From UHGV virus genome UHGV-0008253: DNA of 42,773 nucleotides. One strand, 5' to 3'. Position 1 is the first letter of the stretch. The number at the start of each line of letters is the position of its first letter. This DNA is from a virus. A program made the position numbers and the translations under genes. The notes under the pieces were generated by a model. It saw nothing but the letters and a program-made list of their open reading frames with translations. It did not search any database and had not been told where the DNA came from. Positions 5,762 through 38,705 of this stretch are shown here, in pieces.

Positions 5762-6346
5762 TTATTGTTTGTTTTTTTCGTTCTGGTTGATGACAAATTC
5801 AATGTAACTTTCGATCTTTGCTTTCTCGGTTTCGGGTAACAATGCGTAGCGCGAGCGATCATAGTTGATGGTCGCAGGGTCGTGCGGGTGAATCAGTAAT
5901 TCATAGCCGTGACGCCCGAATGCGGATGCAACATTCTCCAGGGTGGAAATGGAAACGCTGACCTCATTGTTTAACAGGCGGCTGATTGTCACCTGGGCGA
6001 CGCCGGATGCGCGGTGTAGTTTTCCCTGCGTTGAAAGGTCGCGGCTTTCGCTCATCCAGCGTTCCAGGTTGTGAGCCGCCAACTGACCAATGTCGCTAGG
6101 GCCGACAGGCTGAAAACCTTCCTGAGAAAGCGAGCGATCGATATCAAGCCAGTTACGGGGTTTATTGGCGGCAGCTTCAATTTTTCGCGCAACCTGGTCG
6201 CCGATAACCTTCTTGCCAAGAGCCCAGCGGTTTACCAGATTTGCCTGAGTTCCAAGTTTTTCAGCCATCCGCGTCTGAACACCATTGAATTCACGGTCGA
6301 TCAAGTCGTTGAGATTTTGCCTGCGGACGTCCTGGATACTTTTCAT
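5762..6346 (-). CDS. phage repressor, tandem HTH (XRE-type) DNA-binding protein without recognisable S24 autocleavage domain
   Basis: two HTH-like segments (QTRMAEKLGTQANLVNRWALG and ASGVAQVTISRLLNNE); divergent from cro-like gene with operators between. Confidence 0.7.
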   Translation of the reverse strand: MKSIQDVRRQNLNDLIDREFNGVQTRMAEKLGTQANLVNRWALGKKVIGDQVARKIEAAANKPRNWLDIDRSLSQEGFQPVGPSDIGQLAAHNLERWMSESRDLSTQGKLHRASGVAQVTISRLLNNEVSVSISTLENVASAFGRHGYELLIHPHDPATINYDRSRYALLPETEKAKIESYIEFVINQNEKNKQ

Positions 6347-15720: not shown

Positions 15721-15797
15721 TGGCGTGGCATGCAGGATTCGAACCTGCGACCAACCGCTTAGAAGGCGGTTGCTCTGTCCGACTGAGCTAATGCCAC
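15721..15797 (-). tRNA. tRNA-Arg (anticodon UCU)
   Basis: cloverleaf read directly: acceptor GTGGCAT/ATGCCAC, D-stem GCTC/GAGC, anticodon stem ACCGC/GCGGT with loop CUUCUAA, T-arm GCAGG-TTCGAAT-CCTGC, discriminator G, CCA. Confidence 0.85.
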
Positions 15798-32961: not shown

Positions 32962-32990
32962 AAAAAAGCCCGCAGCGCGGGCTATTCTTT
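32962..32990. terminator. bidirectional rho-independent terminator
   Basis: hairpin gcccgc-agc-gcgggc flanked by A6 upstream and tattctttttt downstream; overlaps stop of 288-aa gene. Confidence 0.7.
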
Positions 32991-33848
32991 TTTGCTATTT
33001 CTTTGATATATATTTCTTCCATTTTTGGTAACACGAATAACGTGCCCCCTGGATTCTACTTTGTTATTTGTTGCTTTATATACTTCAAAATCAAACCATG
33101 ATATATAACTTATTTCGTCAATAGACACCATGATCTCAAGTCCTAGCACTTTCTTTCTGCTAATTCCTCTTATTGCTGCAGTCCGCTTGACCTGTATTTC
33201 TCCTGGATAAGCATTAGTGAATGTGACAGATAAGTTTTCTTTGTTCCTGTATCCTGACATTAAAGGAACAAAAGATATGTGCTGATGCGGACCCTGATTT
33301 TCCGTTGGTTCACCAGAACCATTTATTATTCCAACATACACTTTGTTTGATGATAAAGTAATCAACATTGGTCGTTTAGGATCCGATTCAATAGCATCAA
33401 GCAATAGTAAGTCTAAAGAACCTTGCGAGTAAGTTTTTCGCAGTACTCTGGCCTTCATTGCCTCTGTTTTTTGCTCGTAAATATCACGTTTATAAAAACA
33501 ACCAAGAAGAAAATCTTTCACCCACACAACAGACACATAACACAAAGAGAAGCAAATGGATGTGGCTGAGAGAAGAAGCAGCCACATGTAAATTCTATCT
33601 GTTTCTGGTTTTGATGTTACATTAAAAGTTTCCACCATATCGTGAACTAGGTGAAAATCAGGCCATTTATATTTTATAGCGGCTGCAATTATTACTGATG
33701 CAACAAGGCAATATGTACCTAATGCAGCTACTTTCATATAAAGAAGCTGGCCTTCATGTCGGTATAAACGGAAATAATGATACTGGTTAGCGGTTATCAT
33801 AATATAACCACTAACCAGAATGGGGATAATTAGAAGAGCTAACAACAC
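32982..33848 (-). CDS. membrane-anchored protein of unknown function (3 N-terminal TM helices + about 170-aa soluble domain), low-GC moron
   Basis: hydrophobic segments at residues about 1-20, 39-58, 88-110; markedly AT-rich codon usage versus neighbours; coupled to upstream 69-aa gene. Confidence 0.6.
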   Translation of the reverse strand: MLLALLIIPILVSGYIMITANQYHYFRLYRHEGQLLYMKVAALGTYCLVASVIIAAAIKYKWPDFHLVHDMVETFNVTSKPETDRIYMWLLLLSATSICFSLCYVSVVWVKDFLLGCFYKRDIYEQKTEAMKARVLRKTYSQGSLDLLLLDAIESDPKRPMLITLSSNKVYVGIINGSGEPTENQGPHQHISFVPLMSGYRNKENLSVTFTNAYPGEIQVKRTAAIRGISRKKVLGLEIMVSIDEISYISWFDFEVYKATNNKVESRGHVIRVTKNGRNIYQRNSKKE

Positions 33849-34098: not shown

Positions 34099-34164
34099 TC
34101 TTACGTGAATCTACATCACACCGCAAATGATTATGTCAGAAGCACATCCCTGTGCCGCCGCCCG

Positions 34165-34815
34165 TCAGAAGAACCCTGCCTTGTCGTTGATGTACTCCGC
34201 GTGGGTCTGGATATCACGCAGGCATTTGCTCACACCGACGATGTAGCAGAACATGGTGGTCAGCTCCGCCGCCGCGCCCGATACGTCGTGCCCGTCGTCC
34301 TGTAACTGGTTCAGCAGATTCATCAGCAGTGAGTTCTCCGTCAGGCCGAGAACACCAGACGGCGAATGAATCAGGCTACGGTAGCCGGGCTTCAGTGGGG
34401 CACTGTATTCTTTTTTGTCTTCCAGCTTGATCGCCTCCATAATGGCGGGCATGAAGCCTGACAAGACCTTCTCCACTTTTGTTTCTTGTTGTCTTAAACG
34501 TTTCTCGCATTCAATGAAGTAGCGTCGTACCTGACGACCTTTTTCGTTACGCTCGACCATCGCCAGCTCTTTGGCTGTATCGAGGGTGAGGTGGTAGTCT
34601 TTTGCAGGACGGCCTCTGCCTATTTTTTCCCGAACTTGGGAAATAATCATAAAGTCTTGATTTTCAACGAAACCATATTCAGAAATTCGTTCGACAATCC
34701 ACGAAGCAAATCGCTTACCCACATCGAGGAAAGTGTGTAAATCACGGGCATTAACGAGAAGAGCGGTTTCGTTGGATATAGTGCCGTTGAATACGGGGAT
34801 GAGTTGAGCGTTCAT
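34165..34815 (-). CDS. antirepressor (AntA/Bro-N-like N-terminal domain + C-terminal domain shared with 85-aa protein)
   Basis: N-terminus LIPVFNGTISNETALLVNARDLHTFLDVGKRFASWIVE resembles AntA-type antirepressors; C-terminus about 40 percent identical to 35133-35390 product. Confidence 0.65.
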   Translation of the reverse strand: MNAQLIPVFNGTISNETALLVNARDLHTFLDVGKRFASWIVERISEYGFVENQDFMIISQVREKIGRGRPAKDYHLTLDTAKELAMVERNEKGRQVRRYFIECEKRLRQQETKVEKVLSGFMPAIMEAIKLEDKKEYSAPLKPGYRSLIHSPSGVLGLTENSLLMNLLNQLQDDGHDVSGAAAELTTMFCYIVGVSKCLRDIQTHAEYINDKAGFF

Positions 34816-34973
34816 TATGGCGTCTCCACTTAGCGAATTACATCACCACCGCTGAGACCAATCAGATGGTGGTGAACTGAACGGAGTTGGTCTTACCGGC
34901 CTAAGTGGTACCGGCGTCCTTTCGGACCCCCATTCAGCCCACCATAATTCTGGCATGACTGTGCTATACGCAT

Positions 34974-35095
34974 AAAAAAACCACGTCTGGCGTGGTATGC
35001 GCCACTTAGTAATCCGGGAGACCAATCCCGGCACTGGATTTTGCCAGTGCCCGATTACTATGGCACAAGAGGAGTGCGATGTAAATTTACCTCAA
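34974..35095 (-). ncRNA. candidate small RNA / structured ant leader ending in intrinsic terminator
   Basis: candidate promoter -35 TTGAAA (35124-35129), -10 TTATAT (35102-35107), operator over +1; three stem-loops (ggcactgg/ccagtgcc, ccggga/tcccgg, ccacg/cgtgg) then U7. Confidence 0.4.
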
Positions 35096-35101
35096 AGGTA
35101 A
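35087..35101. promoter_or_regulatory. operator palindrome TTACCtcaaaGGTAA at candidate ant/sRNA promoter
   Basis: perfect TTACC-N5-GGTAA abutting candidate -10. Confidence 0.6.
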
Positions 35102-35132
35102 ATATAAGCACTCCACTTGGTAATTTCAAATC

Positions 35133-35390
35133 TTATCTGGTTTGTTTTCGTAATTGTTCGGCACAATAGTCGAGATGTGTTTGCAGATCCTGCATAGACA
35201 TCTGTGAGCTGGTGACGTAGTTAATCAGTGCAGTCAGTTCGGCAAGTGGGCCATCGACATTAAATCCATCCTTATCGAGATCCCGGAGTAATTTCATCAA
35301 GTGCGATCCCTCCACCAGTGACCTGACGCCTCCCGGCGTGTGAATCCTTTCGGTAAATCCGTCTTCCAGTGGATAGTGATACTGCTGCAT
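35133..35390 (-). CDS. small antirepressor-like protein (stand-alone homolog of Ant C-terminal domain), LexA-box controlled
   Basis: 85 aa from ATG 35390 with GGAGAAG SD; IHTPGGV...LMKLL...DG..V.G.LAELT...DLQTH aligns to Ant C-terminus; LexA box 19 nt upstream. Confidence 0.6.
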   Translation of the reverse strand: MQQYHYPLEDGFTERIHTPGGVRSLVEGSHLMKLLRDLDKDGFNVDGPLAELTALINYVTSSQMSMQDLQTHLDYCAEQLRKQTR

Positions 35391-35409
35391 CTTATCTTCT
35401 CCATGCAAT

Positions 35410-35429
35410 AACTGTATATTTATACAGTA
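35410..35429. promoter_or_regulatory. LexA box (SOS operator) AACTGTATATTTATACAGTA
   Basis: CTGT-N8-ACAG with AT-rich spacer, 18/20 match to consensus TACTGTATATATATACAGTA. Confidence 0.75.
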
Positions 35430-35466
35430 GCAAATAATTTGTTTGCTATCCAGCACGTTTTGCAAA

Positions 35467-35481
35467 TTACCTGAAAGGTAA
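35467..35481. promoter_or_regulatory. operator palindrome TTACCtgaaaGGTAA between LexA-box gene and tailspike
   Basis: perfect TTACC-N5-GGTAA. Confidence 0.6.
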
Positions 35482-35585
35482 TATCTATTCGTATTTACAG
35501 CCTTTCTATCCATATGTGGTTTTCCAGGTAATAGAATAACCAGATATGCGGCGCAACGGGTGCTGCGACTATCTGGAGATTTAAC

Positions 35586-38500
35586 ATGACGGTCTCAACC
35601 GAAGTTGACCACAACGAATACACCGGTAACGGCGTTACGACATCGTTTCCGTATACTTTTCGAGTTTTCAGAAAATCAGACCTGGTTGTTCAGGTGTCTG
35701 ACCTGAACGGAAACGTAACAGAATTGGTTCTGGATACCGGTTATACGGTAACTGGGGCGGGCACTTATAGTGGCGGTTCTGTGGTTCTTCCGTCTCCGCT
35801 TGCTACTGGATGGCGAATTACGATAGATCGTGTGCTTGATGTAGTGCAGGAGACAGACCTTCGCAATCAGGGAAAATTTTTCCCCGAAGTGCATGAAGAT
35901 GCCTTTGACTACCTGACGATGCTGATCCAGCAATGTTTTGGGTGGTTCAGACGTGCATTGATGAAACCATCTTTGCTTGCAAAATATTACGATGCAAAGC
36001 AAAACAAAATTTCTAACCTTGCAGATCCATCATTTGAGCAGGACGCTGTAAATAATCGCTCAATGCGTAATTATGTCGATGCTGCAATCTCCGGGGTTGT
36101 TGGTGGTTTTGGTTGGTTTATTCAGTATGGTTCTGGGGCTGTGTACCGAACGTTCCAGGATAAAATGCGTGATGCTATTAGCCCCAAAGATTTTGGAGCT
36201 GTTGGTGATGGTATAAATGACGATTCCACTGCAATAAGCGCGTGCCTTGAAGCCTCATCTCCAGGTTATAAAATTGACGGATTAGGGCTTACTTTTAAAG
36301 TATCAACTCTTCCGGATGTCAGTCGATTTAAAAATGCTCGTTTTTTATTTGAGAGAATACCGGGCCAGCCTCTTTTTTATGCTTCTGAAGATTTTATCCA
36401 GGGAGAGTTATTTAAAATTACAGATACACCGTGGTACAACGCCTGGACGCAGGATAAAACGTTTGTATATGACAATGTCATCTATGCGCCTTTTATGGCT
36501 GGAGACCGCCATGGTGTAAATAACCTCCATGTTGCATGGGTTCGCTCAGGAGATGACGGGAAGACCTGGACAACGCCGGAATGGCTTACAGATTTACATG
36601 AAAACTATCCCACAGTTAACTATCACTGCATGAGTATGGGGGTTGTCAGAAATCGCCTTTTTGCTGTAATTGAGACGCGGACCGTGAGCGGAAATAAACT
36701 GCAGGTTGCAGAGTTGTGGGATCGCCCAATGAGTCGCAGCCTTCGCGTTTATGGTGGTATAACGAAAGCAGCAAATCAGCAAGTCGCTTATATTCGCATT
36801 ACTGATCACGGATTATTTGCTGGTGATTTTGTCAACTTCTCAAACTCTGGTGTTACAGGTGTTACCGGGAATATGACGGTGACTACTGTTATTGATAAAA
36901 ATACTTTTACAGTTACGACGCAAAATACCCAGGATGTGGATCAGAATAACGAGGGTAGATACTGGAGTTTTGGTACATCATTTCACTCGTCACCATGGAG
37001 AAAAACCAGTCTTGGAACTATTCCTTCTTTTGTTGACGGAAGCACTCCTGTTACTGAGATTCACAGTTTTGCGACGATTAGCGATAACAGTTTTGCTGTT
37101 GGCTACCATAATGGTGATATTGGTCCACGCGAGCTTGGGATACTCTATTTCTCTGATGCTTTCGGTTCTCCTGGTAGCTTTGTTCGCAGACGCATACCTG
37201 CAGAATATGAGGCGAATGCATCTGAGCCATGTGTAAAATATTATGATGGCATTCTGTATCTGACGACCAGGGGGACATTAAGTACTCAACCCGGTAGTTC
37301 ATTGCACAGAAGCTCTGATTTAGGTACATCATGGAATTCTCTTCGCTTCCCAAATAATGTTCATCACTCAAACCTTCCTTTTGCCAAAGTTGGCGATGAG
37401 CTGATTATTTTTGGCAGTGAGCGCGCATTTGGTGAGTGGGAAGGAGGAGAACCTGATAACCGTTATGCAGGAAACTATCCAAGAACATTTATGACCAGAG
37501 TTAACGTCAATGAGTGGAGTCTGGATAATGTAGAGTGGGTTAATGTTACTGATCAGATTTATCAGGGCGGAATAGTTAACTCTGCGGTTGGTGTTGGTTC
37601 AGTTTGTATCAAAGACAACTGGCTGTACTACATTTTCGGTGGGGAAGACTTTCTAAACCCATGGAGCATAGGGGATAACAACAGAAAATATCCTTATGTT
37701 CACGATGGTCACCCGGCTGATTTGTATTGTTTCAGGGTGAAAATTAAACAGGAAGAATTTGTTTCAAGGGATTTTGTCTACGGAGCCACTCCTAACAGAA
37801 CGCTTCCTACTTTTATGTCGACGTCAGGCGTGAGGACGGTTCCTGTACCCGTTGATTTCACAGATGATGTTGCCGTCCAGTCACTGACTGTCCATGCAGG
37901 TACATCAGGACAAGTTCGCGCGGAAGTCAAACTTGAGGGTAATTACGCCATTATTGCGAAGAAAGTACCGTCTGATGATGTTACCGCTCAGAGATTAATC
38001 GTTAGCGGCGGTGAAACAACGTCTTCAGCAGATGGTGCAATGATAACGTTGCATGGTTCCGGAAGCAGTACTCCACGTCGCGCGGTATATAACGCACTCG
38101 AACATCTTTTTGAGAACGGAGATGTTAAACCTTATCTTGATAATGTAAATGCTCTTGGTGGTCCGGGAAACAGGTTCTCGACAGTTTATCTTGGCTCCAA
38201 TCCTGTGGTTACCAGTGACGGAACATTAAAGACAGAGCCGGTCTCTCCTGACGAAGCATTGCTGGATGCCTGGGGTGACGTCAGGTATATCGCTTATAAA
38301 TGGCTGAACGCTGTCGCTATAAAGGGGGAAGAAGGGGCGAGGATACATCATGGTGTAATCGCGCAGCAACTTCGTGATGTTCTTATTTCTCACGGACTCA
38401 TGGAAGAAGAAAGCACAACATGCCGCTATGCCTTTCTTTGCTATGACGATTATCCCGCAGTATATGATGACGTCATTACTGGCCAAAGGGAAATGCCGCT

Positions 38501-38705
38501 GACTGATAATGACGGGAGCATCATTGTTGATGAGGATGATAATCCAGTGATGGTAATAGAAGACATCATTGAGCGCGTTGAAATAACGCCAGCAGGATCT
38601 AGATGGGGGGTCAGACCTGATCTCTTATTCTATATCGAGGCAGCATGGCAGCGCAGAGAAATGGATAAGATAAAAGAGCGGGTTCAGTCTCTGGAAGAAC
38701 GTTAA
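35586..38705 (+). CDS. tailspike / receptor-binding depolymerase with pectate-lyase-like beta-helix and C-terminal intramolecular chaperone (S74-like) domain
   Basis: ISPKDFGAVGDGINDDSTAISA motif typical of beta-helix tailspikes; C-terminus SDGTLK...IHHGVIAQQLRDV...AAWQRREMDKIKERVQSLEER resembles autoproteolytic chaperone domains. Confidence 0.8.
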   Translation: MTVSTEVDHNEYTGNGVTTSFPYTFRVFRKSDLVVQVSDLNGNVTELVLDTGYTVTGAGTYSGGSVVLPSPLATGWRITIDRVLDVVQETDLRNQGKFFPEVHEDAFDYLTMLIQQCFGWFRRALMKPSLLAKYYDAKQNKISNLADPSFEQDAVNNRSMRNYVDAAISGVVGGFGWFIQYGSGAVYRTFQDKMRDAISPKDFGAVGDGINDDSTAISACLEASSPGYKIDGLGLTFKVSTLPDVSRFKNARFLFERIPGQPLFYASEDFIQGELFKITDTPWYNAWTQDKTFVYDNVIYAPFMAGDRHGVNNLHVAWVRSGDDGKTWTTPEWLTDLHENYPTVNYHCMSMGVVRNRLFAVIETRTVSGNKLQVAELWDRPMSRSLRVYGGITKAANQQVAYIRITDHGLFAGDFVNFSNSGVTGVTGNMTVTTVIDKNTFTVTTQNTQDVDQNNEGRYWSFGTSFHSSPWRKTSLGTIPSFVDGSTPVTEIHSFATISDNSFAVGYHNGDIGPRELGILYFSDAFGSPGSFVRRRIPAEYEANASEPCVKYYDGILYLTTRGTLSTQPGSSLHRSSDLGTSWNSLRFPNNVHHSNLPFAKVGDELIIFGSERAFGEWEGGEPDNRYAGNYPRTFMTRVNVNEWSLDNVEWVNVTDQIYQGGIVNSAVGVGSVCIKDNWLYYIFGGEDFLNPWSIGDNNRKYPYVHDGHPADLYCFRVKIKQEEFVSRDFVYGATPNRTLPTFMSTSGVRTVPVPVDFTDDVAVQSLTVHAGTSGQVRAEVKLEGNYAIIAKKVPSDDVTAQRLIVSGGETTSSADGAMITLHGSGSSTPRRAVYNALEHLFENGDVKPYLDNVNALGGPGNRFSTVYLGSNPVVTSDGTLKTEPVSPDEALLDAWGDVRYIAYKWLNAVAIKGEEGARIHHGVIAQQLRDVLISHGLMEEESTTCRYAFLCYDDYPAVYDDVITGQREMPLTDNDGSIIVDEDDNPVMVIEDIIERVEITPAGSRWGVRPDLLFYIEAAWQRREMDKIKERVQSLEER

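Follow-up and report, generated by a model that had tools for sequence, protein, structure and literature searches.

An IsrK-family RNA and a C4 antisense RNA upstream of the antirepressor gene of an epsilon15-like Escherichia coli prophage

The window analysed here is the whole 42,773-nt stretch of the virus genome UHGV-0008253. DNA comparison identifies it as an E. coli prophage of the epsilon15-like (Uetakevirus) group, the region from 34100 to 35600 being 94.6% identical to phage phiv142-3 and approximately 90% identical to phiV10. Along the minus strand, a LexA box and an 85-aa ORF are followed by an RNA cassette and then by ant, the antirepressor gene that the cassette would regulate (Table 1). 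The product of the 85-aa ORF is a paralogue of the C-terminal domain of Ant (40% identity to Ant residues 135-212, E = 7e-16), and a terminator scan of the stretch between this ORF and the RNA cassette predicted no terminator. The LexA box is found at the equivalent position in phiV10, phiv142-3, and Tyrion. A tailspike gene whose product is an endosialidase is encoded on the plus strand at 35586-38705, and PADLOC returned no defence-system match for the neighbouring 288-aa, 69-aa, and 85-aa proteins. No RNA gene is annotated at the cassette in the phiV10 and phiv142-3 phage records or in the one RefSeq genome inspected; the phiV10 record marks just a putative terminator and a spurious ORF similarity over it.

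Table 1. Coordinates of the features at and around the RNA cassette (positions in the window; a dot marks features given without a strand).
Feature	Coordinates	Strand	Remarks
Operator palindrome TTACCTGAAAGGTAA upstream of the 85-aa gene	35467-35481	.	Found by operator-site search; putative repressor operator
LexA (SOS) box CTGTATAAATATACAG upstream of the 85-aa gene	35412-35427	-	Found by CTGT-N8-ACAG search
85-aa ORF, paralogue of the Ant C-terminal domain	35133-35390	-	phrog_450, unknown function
Upstream promoter (predicted)	35101-35129	-	TTGAAA (35129-35124), 17 nt, TATATT (35106-35101); 10/12 consensus positions; predicted start ~35094, inside the operator
Operator palindrome TTACCTTTGAGGTAA	35087-35101	.	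Flanked by the upstream promoter's -10 and the isrK promoter's -35
isrK promoter (predicted)	35057-35085	-	TTTACA (35085-35080), 17 nt with extended-10 TG, CATAGT (35062-35057); predicted start G35050; sequence match
IsrK-family RNA (a1b1 unit)	34974-35050	-	Rfam RF01394; hairpin 1, hairpin 2, b1, terminator hairpin and U run
C4 antisense RNA	34865-34949	-	Rfam RF01695; tRNA-like closing stem ending in CACCACCA
Site a2 of the ant leader (UUGGUCU)	34855-34861	-	Exact complement of a'
GGUGGUGA	34843-34850	-	Complementary to the C4 3' strand UCACCACC; nearly invariant across loci
b2 target CUAAGUGG with the ant Shine-Dalgarno	34824-34833	-	b2 (34833-34826) overlaps GGAG (34827-34824); exact complement of b'
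ant, 216-aa antirepressor, AntA/AntB family	34165-34815	-	Regulated gene; Pfam PF08346, E = 7e-28; phrog_377 'anti-repressor Ant', E = 3e-65

The whole window was scanned against Rfam at curated thresholds, which gave three matches: a tRNA, isrK, and C4. The isrK match covers model positions 1-77 at 67.7 bits (threshold 50, E = 1.6e-12), and the C4 match is full-length over model positions 1-87 at 61.2 bits (threshold 45, E = 1.4e-09). An earlier, sequence-only reading of this DNA had proposed an RNA of the C4/IsrK type here, and the covariance models thus bear it out for both families at once. The 160 nt between the IsrK terminator and ant, which that reading had left blank, hold the C4 gene and its target sites, with ant starting 50 nt downstream of C4.

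Within the IsrK-family RNA, the sequence a1 (UUGGUCU, 35025-35019) lies in the loop of hairpin 2, and b1 (CUAAGUGG, 35009-35002) is single-stranded. The terminator hairpin ACCACG-CCAGA-CGUGGU at 34996-34980 is followed by a run of seven U residues whose last position, 34974, is 159 nt upstream of the ant start codon (ATG at 34815); a hairpin and U7 terminator had been placed about 160 bp before ant in the sequence-only reading, and it is indeed there. The stable stem-loops which that reading had described are likewise all present on the minus strand, with a predicted folding energy of -49.4 kcal/mol for a 121-nt RNA reaching from the upstream promoter to the U run (z = -5.0) and of -29.4 kcal/mol for the 77-nt IsrK (z = -2.9). 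A further Rfam family, RF03163 (c4-a1b1, described as 'a1, b1 targets of C4 antisense RNA'), reaches 39.9 bits (E = 1.8e-08) over 35063-35011, which is below its threshold of 46.7 bits, whereas the homologues from Stx phages pass that threshold with 50.1 and 50.5 bits. The terminated RNA is an IsrK/a1b1 unit that bears copies of the target sites, and it is not the antisense effector. The likeness to antisense or attenuator RNAs that had been drawn from the sequence therefore holds as far as P1 c4 and IsrK are concerned, but the role of effector passes from the terminated RNA to the C4 RNA downstream of it.

The C4 RNA has a predicted folding energy of -41.2 kcal/mol (z = -5.5) and consists of a long closing stem with two inner hairpins. 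In the minimum-energy fold, b' (CCACUUAG, 34908-34901) lies in a hairpin loop and a' (AGACCAA, 34893-34887) in an unpaired internal stretch. Each of them, a' with 7 nt and b' with 8 nt, is exactly complementary to one site in IsrK (a1 or b1) and one site in the ant leader (a2 or b2). A shared 8-mer, or three shared 7-mers, between IsrK and the leader was seen in none of 20,000 shuffles. The duplex between b' and b2 is just 8 bp long and covers two of the four Shine-Dalgarno bases. When C4 was folded together with the leader or with IsrK in RNAcofold, the net gain was -0.8 and -1.1 kcal/mol, respectively; these values are near zero because loop-loop contacts, which are beyond RNAcofold, would need the C4 stem to be opened in that program, and duplex energies of the loop segments were used in its place. 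In the predicted fold of the full-length transcript, the middle of IsrK is paired with a' and b' of C4. The segments AUGGUGGG and CACCACC of the C4 stem are invariant or nearly so across loci, and the stem is followed by CCA, an arrangement which fits tRNA-like processing. The nearly invariant GGUGGUGA could, together with the 3' strand of C4, form an alternative hairpin with a2 in its loop.

Transcription of the cassette likely starts from tandem promoters, the upstream one being located 44 nt farther upstream than the isrK promoter. The upstream promoter is the same site that the sequence-only reading had pointed to, although the register given there (a spacer of 16 nt and TTATAT) is one base off and is better read as 17 nt and TATATT. 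A promoter scan found 3 sites compared to 2.7 in shuffles, so that a promoter match by itself is not above chance. The hexamers of the upstream promoter are kept in position, with diverged spacers, in the epsilon15-like (Uetakevirus) relatives and in a Klebsiella phage, and this positional conservation is confined to those phages. For the isrK promoter, a sequence match that ends 6 nt before the start of the isrK model was found in 17 of 17 loci, and the predicted start, G35050, is the first position of that model. Since this promoter is conserved across all phage groups, the conserved IsrK species is predicted to be 77 nt long; a 121-nt form may exist alongside it. The RNA of about 120 nt that had been proposed earlier thus stands as a terminated RNA, though not at that size for the conserved species.

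The palindrome that had been seen at the start site begins at the last base of the upstream -10 hexamer. Sequences of the form TTACC-N5-GGTAA occur in 10 exact copies in the window, and 17 sites with at most two mismatches were found compared to 1.0 expected. A gene for a 194-aa HTH repressor lies on the minus strand at 5762-6346, with operator-type sites on both sides of it (5628, 5690, and 6402 exact; 6450 with two mismatches). Because such sites flank the repressor gene and one copy lies between the cassette promoters, the palindrome is probably an operator of the main repressor of the prophage, which would then control the RNA cassette directly. We would also like to note that the layout of the sites around the repressor gene is like that of OL and OR.

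When the 320-nt region was used as the query of a sensitive DNA search, 251 phage records were returned, and 17 loci were fetched for comparison. These comprise the epsilon15-like phages phiV10, phiv142-3, Phi05_1999 B, and Tyrion, the phiV10-related EC.W1-9, a Klebsiella phage, APSE-2, Stx phages, phiP27, other lambdoid phages, a P1-like Punavirus, and a Gifsy-1-like Salmonella phage. The order isrK-C4-ant/icd is found in all 17 loci, which represent at least five phage groups. Rfam C4 was detected in every locus, and Rfam isrK approximately 19-25 nt upstream of it in 15 of the 17; in the P1-like and Gifsy-1-like loci, isrK falls below threshold and an IsrK-like unit is visible in the alignment only. 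The P1-like phage has C4 directly upstream of icd, with an upstream unit that carries equivalent hairpins and a terminator. In the Gifsy-1-like Salmonella phage, the antirepressor gene is followed by isrJ, which matches the order published for Gifsy-1. The stems on which the sequence-only reading was built, and the cassette with them, are kept in related as well as unrelated prophages. The long closing stem of C4 is 100% paired in the 17 loci, and hairpin 1 of IsrK is 94% paired across loci with compensatory changes at 6 of 7 pairs. The IsrK terminator and the first C4 hairpin reach approximately 50% pairing in the MAFFT alignment, in which they are misplaced owing to their variable length, and we treat this figure as an alignment artefact rather than as counterevidence.

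The a and b sequences vary between loci, and all three copies of each vary together. Across the 17 loci, a' and a2 are fully (100%) paired, five of their seven base pairs having undergone compensatory changes (slid controls, 23-40% paired), and a1 and a' are 98.3% paired with compensatory changes at the same five pairs. For both of these helices, no shuffle matched the percentage paired, the number of cells in which both sides had changed, or the covariation score, and slid controls ranged from 21 to 52% overall. The b loops differ in length and align poorly, so duplex energies were compared instead. The mean energy of cognate b'-b2 duplexes is -12.8 kcal/mol versus -6.0 kcal/mol for non-cognate ones, and the cognate partner ranks first in 15 of 17 loci; for b'-b1 the corresponding means are -11.6 and -5.3 kcal/mol, with the cognate partner first in 14 of 17. 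The b2 site overlaps the Shine-Dalgarno sequence in the window locus and in most of the others. This three-way covariation, seen over five phage groups, provides a simple argument that IsrK and the a1b1 element of P1 are the same kind of object.

The cassette can be compared to the immI region of P1 and P7 (a1b1 - c4 - a2b2 - icd - ant), with which it shares a C4-family RNA with unpaired a' and b', targets both upstream (a1, b1) and downstream (a2, b2) of that RNA, a b2 site located at the RBS of the gene that follows, regulation of an antirepressor, and, ahead of the cassette, a putative operator for the primary repressor. The window and the c4 region of the P1-like phage are 68% identical in DNA over approximately 190 nt, and a C1-operator-like site lies upstream of the cassette of that phage as well. 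The P1 C4 RNA is reportedly cut from the operon transcript by RNase P, which makes the 5' cut at the tRNA-like stem, and it is said to pair with a2 and b2 and to block the translation of icd. In contrast to P1, in which icd is the direct translational target, no icd is present between C4 and ant in the window, and b2 lies at the RBS of ant itself. The window antirepressor is of the AntA/AntB type, the a and b alleles differ, and the phage is an integrating epsilon15-like podovirus whereas P1 is a plasmid prophage. The window operator is a 15-bp palindrome, unlike the operator of P1 C1, which is asymmetric. In P1, C1 represses the transcription of c4-icd-ant, and C4 is additionally needed for full repression (PMC8198154).

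Similarly, the cassette resembles the Gifsy-1 locus isrK - orf45 (STnc1160) - anrP - isrJ. In both, an IsrK-family RNA that has promoter and terminator sequences of its own precedes a C4-like segment and an antirepressor gene reached by read-through, and the C4-like segment is complementary to the middle of IsrK. The read-through transcript of Gifsy-1 is silent in translation, and the translation of anrP rises more than 100-fold when IsrK is provided in trans; compensatory mutations proved the pairing of the middle part of IsrK with the C4-like segment, in helix b-I (PMC4825925). A counterpart of helix b-I is present in the predicted full-length fold of the window cassette. Unlike Gifsy-1, the window has no ORF of the orf45 type and no isrJ downstream, per the Rfam scan of the window, and the locus adjoins a tailspike gene rather than the lambdoid nin/Q region.

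Taking these comparisons together, we consider it quite probable that the cassette serves this epsilon15-like prophage as its secondary immunity (immI-type) module and is built like the c4-icd-ant operon of P1. IsrK and C4 would then most likely act jointly to keep ant untranslated during lysogeny. The anatomy of the locus and the covariation are observed directly, and from homology and that covariation we infer how the module would work. In the lysogen, the repressor would hold transcription low, and most transcripts would end at the IsrK terminator. Transcripts that read through would supply C4, which would be excised from the precursor and pair with a2 and b2, thereby blocking ribosome binding at ant; this translational block would probably be followed by Rho-dependent polarity. 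Because IsrK bears copies of the target sites, it would compete with the ant leader for C4, both in cis, as part of the precursor, and in trans, in its short form, and the ratio of IsrK to C4 would decide whether Ant is produced. The a and b sequences would act as a specificity allele, conferring immunity against phages with a matching allele. The simplest reading that would accommodate the data from both P1 and Gifsy-1 is that C4 represses ant at a2/b2 while IsrK competes for C4. The covariation itself is blind to whether pairing occurs in cis or in trans, as well as to whether translation is repressed or transcription terminated. A module of this kind would give the epsilon15-like (Uetakevirus) prophages of E. 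coli, a group with K1-capsule-specific members in avian and extraintestinal pathogenic strains, a second, RNA-based immunity system of the P1 type.

A more specific and rather doubtful possibility is that IsrK is a dedicated decoy for C4 (an anti-antisense RNA) and that the switch is set by the position at which transcription starts. The single operator between the putative tandem promoters would be part of such a switch, as would the gene directly upstream, which encodes a mini-antirepressor consisting of the Ant C-terminal domain alone under predicted LexA control. Since no terminator was predicted between that gene and the cassette, DNA damage would add transcription into the cassette, which might tip the balance between a1b1 decoy and C4 towards the decoy and thereby allow Ant to be translated. 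If this were true, SOS-dependent and RNA-gated antirepressors would be joined in one circuit, and P1 c4 and Gifsy-1 IsrK would share one account, that of three competing copies of one target pair.

The immI-type reading, with C4 acting on translation, has to be weighed against other uses of the same parts. Termination control like that of the P4 CI RNA, in which C4 would pair with a1/b1 of nascent IsrK and with a2/b2 and mainly cause premature termination, is unlikely in our view: the termination that precedes ant in P1 is Rho-dependent and is reportedly a consequence of the translational block, and the overlap of b2 with the Shine-Dalgarno sequence here and in most loci points to translational control. 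What speaks for it is that b1 directly adjoins the terminator hairpin on its 5' side and that, in the minimum-energy structure predicted for IsrK, GUGGC beside b1 is paired with part of the terminator stem. However, this alternative fold still ends in a hairpin adjoining the U run, and for that reason an anti-terminator role for the sequence beside b1 was set aside. In the work on Gifsy-1, IsrK was also termed a structural homologue of the P4 seqA region, seqA and seqC being the elements that flank CI (PMC4825925).

It is distinctly unlikely that the window follows the published Gifsy-1 mechanism exactly, with the short IsrK acting in trans to open the RBS of an upstream ORF (orf45) that is coupled to the antirepressor start, and with C4 being no independent repressor. 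This account is backed by the published Gifsy-1 experiments, and it agrees with the isrK family match, the equal gene order, and a predicted full-length fold that is similar to structure A of the same study (PMC4825925). Nevertheless, the counterpart of orf45 varies among loci from 3 to more than 58 codons, and in the window the reading frame opened by the invariant AUG in the C4 stem is MVG-stop and ends 116 nt before the ant ATG. With just 3 codons, coupling to ant cannot operate in this phage. Furthermore, a2 and b2 at the ant RBS co-vary with C4, which the orf45 model leaves unexplained.

It is very improbable that the cassette is a cis-acting attenuator only, that is, a terminated leader of approximately 120 nt made from an operator-controlled promoter without any base-pairing regulator. 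A candidate promoter, operator, and terminator were all found, but such a leader would leave out both the above-threshold C4 gene and the three-way covariation, and the conserved promoter predicts an RNA of 77 nt. Lastly, it is extremely improbable that small proteins are encoded here and that the RNA structures are incidental, as would be suggested by a 63-aa ORF at 35034-34843 and by the 'Hypothetical protein' CDSs over the cassette in VT2-Sakai, phi345, and phiP27, because the reading frame is not conserved among loci, the stems are preserved by compensatory changes, and the candidate starts have no preceding Shine-Dalgarno sequence.

The sequence-only reading had also named P22 sar as a parallel. 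The cassette does resemble sar (immI) in that a small RNA would limit antirepressor synthesis in a second immunity region beside the tailspike gene. The gene for sar lies on the opposite strand at the arc-ant junction, whereas the regulators in the window are on the ant strand. Over 34816-35132, no plus-strand promoter-like site was found, and no Rfam family besides isrK, C4, and c4-a1b1 was matched at E <= 1, so we do not retain this parallel.

With the IsrK and C4 pair upstream of ant, the window adds one more ordinary case, unannotated, to a known system, and it leaves the understanding of that class of systems unchanged. A 2010 publication already lists c4 and c4-a1b1 as motifs (PMC2864571). 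In APSE, isrK and C4 precede a Bro-N gene, and a match of a'/b' to the region upstream of that gene has already been noted (PMC7313666). The cassettes of APSE, of Stx phages (VT2-Sakai, phiP27), and of Klebsiella phages are like that of the window in having both Rfam families, approximately 19-25 nt apart, before an ant or Bro-N gene, and differ from it in their a/b alleles and promoters; no experimental work on these isrK-C4-ant cassettes was found in the searchable literature. For the epsilon15-like phage vB_EcoP_ZX5, overexpression of the repressor blocks lytic growth and overexpression of the antirepressor promotes it (PMC9782041). This is the sole experimental paper that we found on a related repressor and antirepressor, and small RNAs are unmentioned in it; a literature search on the epsilon15 antirepressor and LexA likewise returned no paper on an isrK-C4-ant module in epsilon15-like phages. 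What is specific to the window is the host phage group, the lack of both icd and orf45, the b allele, and the single operator site between the putative tandem promoters.

The window a allele is common to Tyrion and EC.W1-9, and its b allele is, among the examined loci, common to phiv142-3 only. The b allele of phiV10 is CUAAAAGG, and the a/b sequences differ between phiV10 and the window prophage. Because they differ between relatives as close as these, the a/b sequences are likely to determine which phages superinfect or cross-induce. The 320-bp cassette region is present in 467 of 5,426 complete E. coli genomes, with at least 95% identity in 83 records.

The leader of the antirepressor gene ant carries a2 and b2, the complements of the unpaired C4 segments a' and b', and between them, on the minus strand, sits GGUGGUGA (34843-34850), nearly invariant among the loci compared. 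The stem that closes C4 has a 3' strand complementary to this octamer, which could thereby form an alternative hairpin with a2 in its loop in the unprocessed transcript. A second alternative pairing concerns b1, the complement of b' within IsrK. The 121-nt form has an additional 5' segment, GUGCCAUAGUAAUC (35054-35067, minus strand), which in the predicted fold is paired with the b1 region GAUUACUAAGUGGCGC, and therefore promoter choice might determine whether b1 is hidden, as in transcripts from the upstream promoter, or exposed, as in those from the isrK promoter.

Phage PPyecE_EH1910 has two complete isrK-C4 cassettes (444-632 and 1100-1288). Their a and b alleles differ, and each cassette is followed by its own matching a2 and b2 sites. 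In the Gifsy-1-like Salmonella phage SW-37, the antirepressor gene has the complement of the C4-like b' loop (UCAACC) after its Shine-Dalgarno sequence and before its AUG, and a2 comes after the end of C4. Loci of the Gifsy-1 type may therefore also be subject to P1-type repression, exerted by the STnc1160/orf45 segment. The records of phi345, VT2-Sakai, and phiP27 annotate "hypothetical protein" CDSs over the isrK-C4 cassette, and these are probably miscalled RNA genes.

Upstream of the cassette lies an 85-aa ORF with a LexA box 5' of it, and no terminator was predicted between this ORF and the RNA cassette. The main repressor has HTH domains, but a self-cleaving peptidase domain was not among its Pfam matches. 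Given the LexA box, the likeness to the Ant C-terminal domain, and a repressor with no such peptidase match, the 85-aa protein may be the SOS-dependent antirepressor, like that of the Gifsy phages or Tum of coliphage 186.

The palindrome TTACC-N5-GGTAA occurs in 10 exact copies scattered across the prophage. The repressor gene (5762-6346) is flanked by four operator-type sites (three exact and one with two mismatches), and further copies precede genes remote from the immunity region. Phage P1 likewise has many dispersed C1 operators, which the scattered palindromes resemble.

Coordinates of features in the prophage and in phage SW-37
Feature	Position	Strand	Remarks
TTACC-N5-GGTAA, exact copies	5628, 5690, 6402, 8733, 8795, 12955, 16120, 34084, 35087, 35467		15 bp each
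LexA box	35412-35427	minus	near-consensus, CTGTATAAATATACAG; 5' of 85-aa ORF
85-aa ORF	35133-35390	minus	phrog_450; 40% identity to Ant C-terminal domain
288-aa ORF	32982-33848	minus	phrog_3630; downstream of ant; low GC (~37%)
Tailspike	35586-38705	plus	complete endosialidase by domain content
tRNA-Arg gene	15721-15797	minus	anticodon UCU
C4-like segment and target sites, SW-37	1280-1362 plus 50 nt downstream		

The 288-aa ORF, for which Pfam and PADLOC gave no matches, looks like an accessory ("moron") gene. The tailspike comprises an N-terminal extension, a beta-propeller, a beta-barrel, a stalk, and an S74 chaperone domain; the endosialidase being complete, K1 is probably the capsule for which this epsilon15-like prophage is specific.
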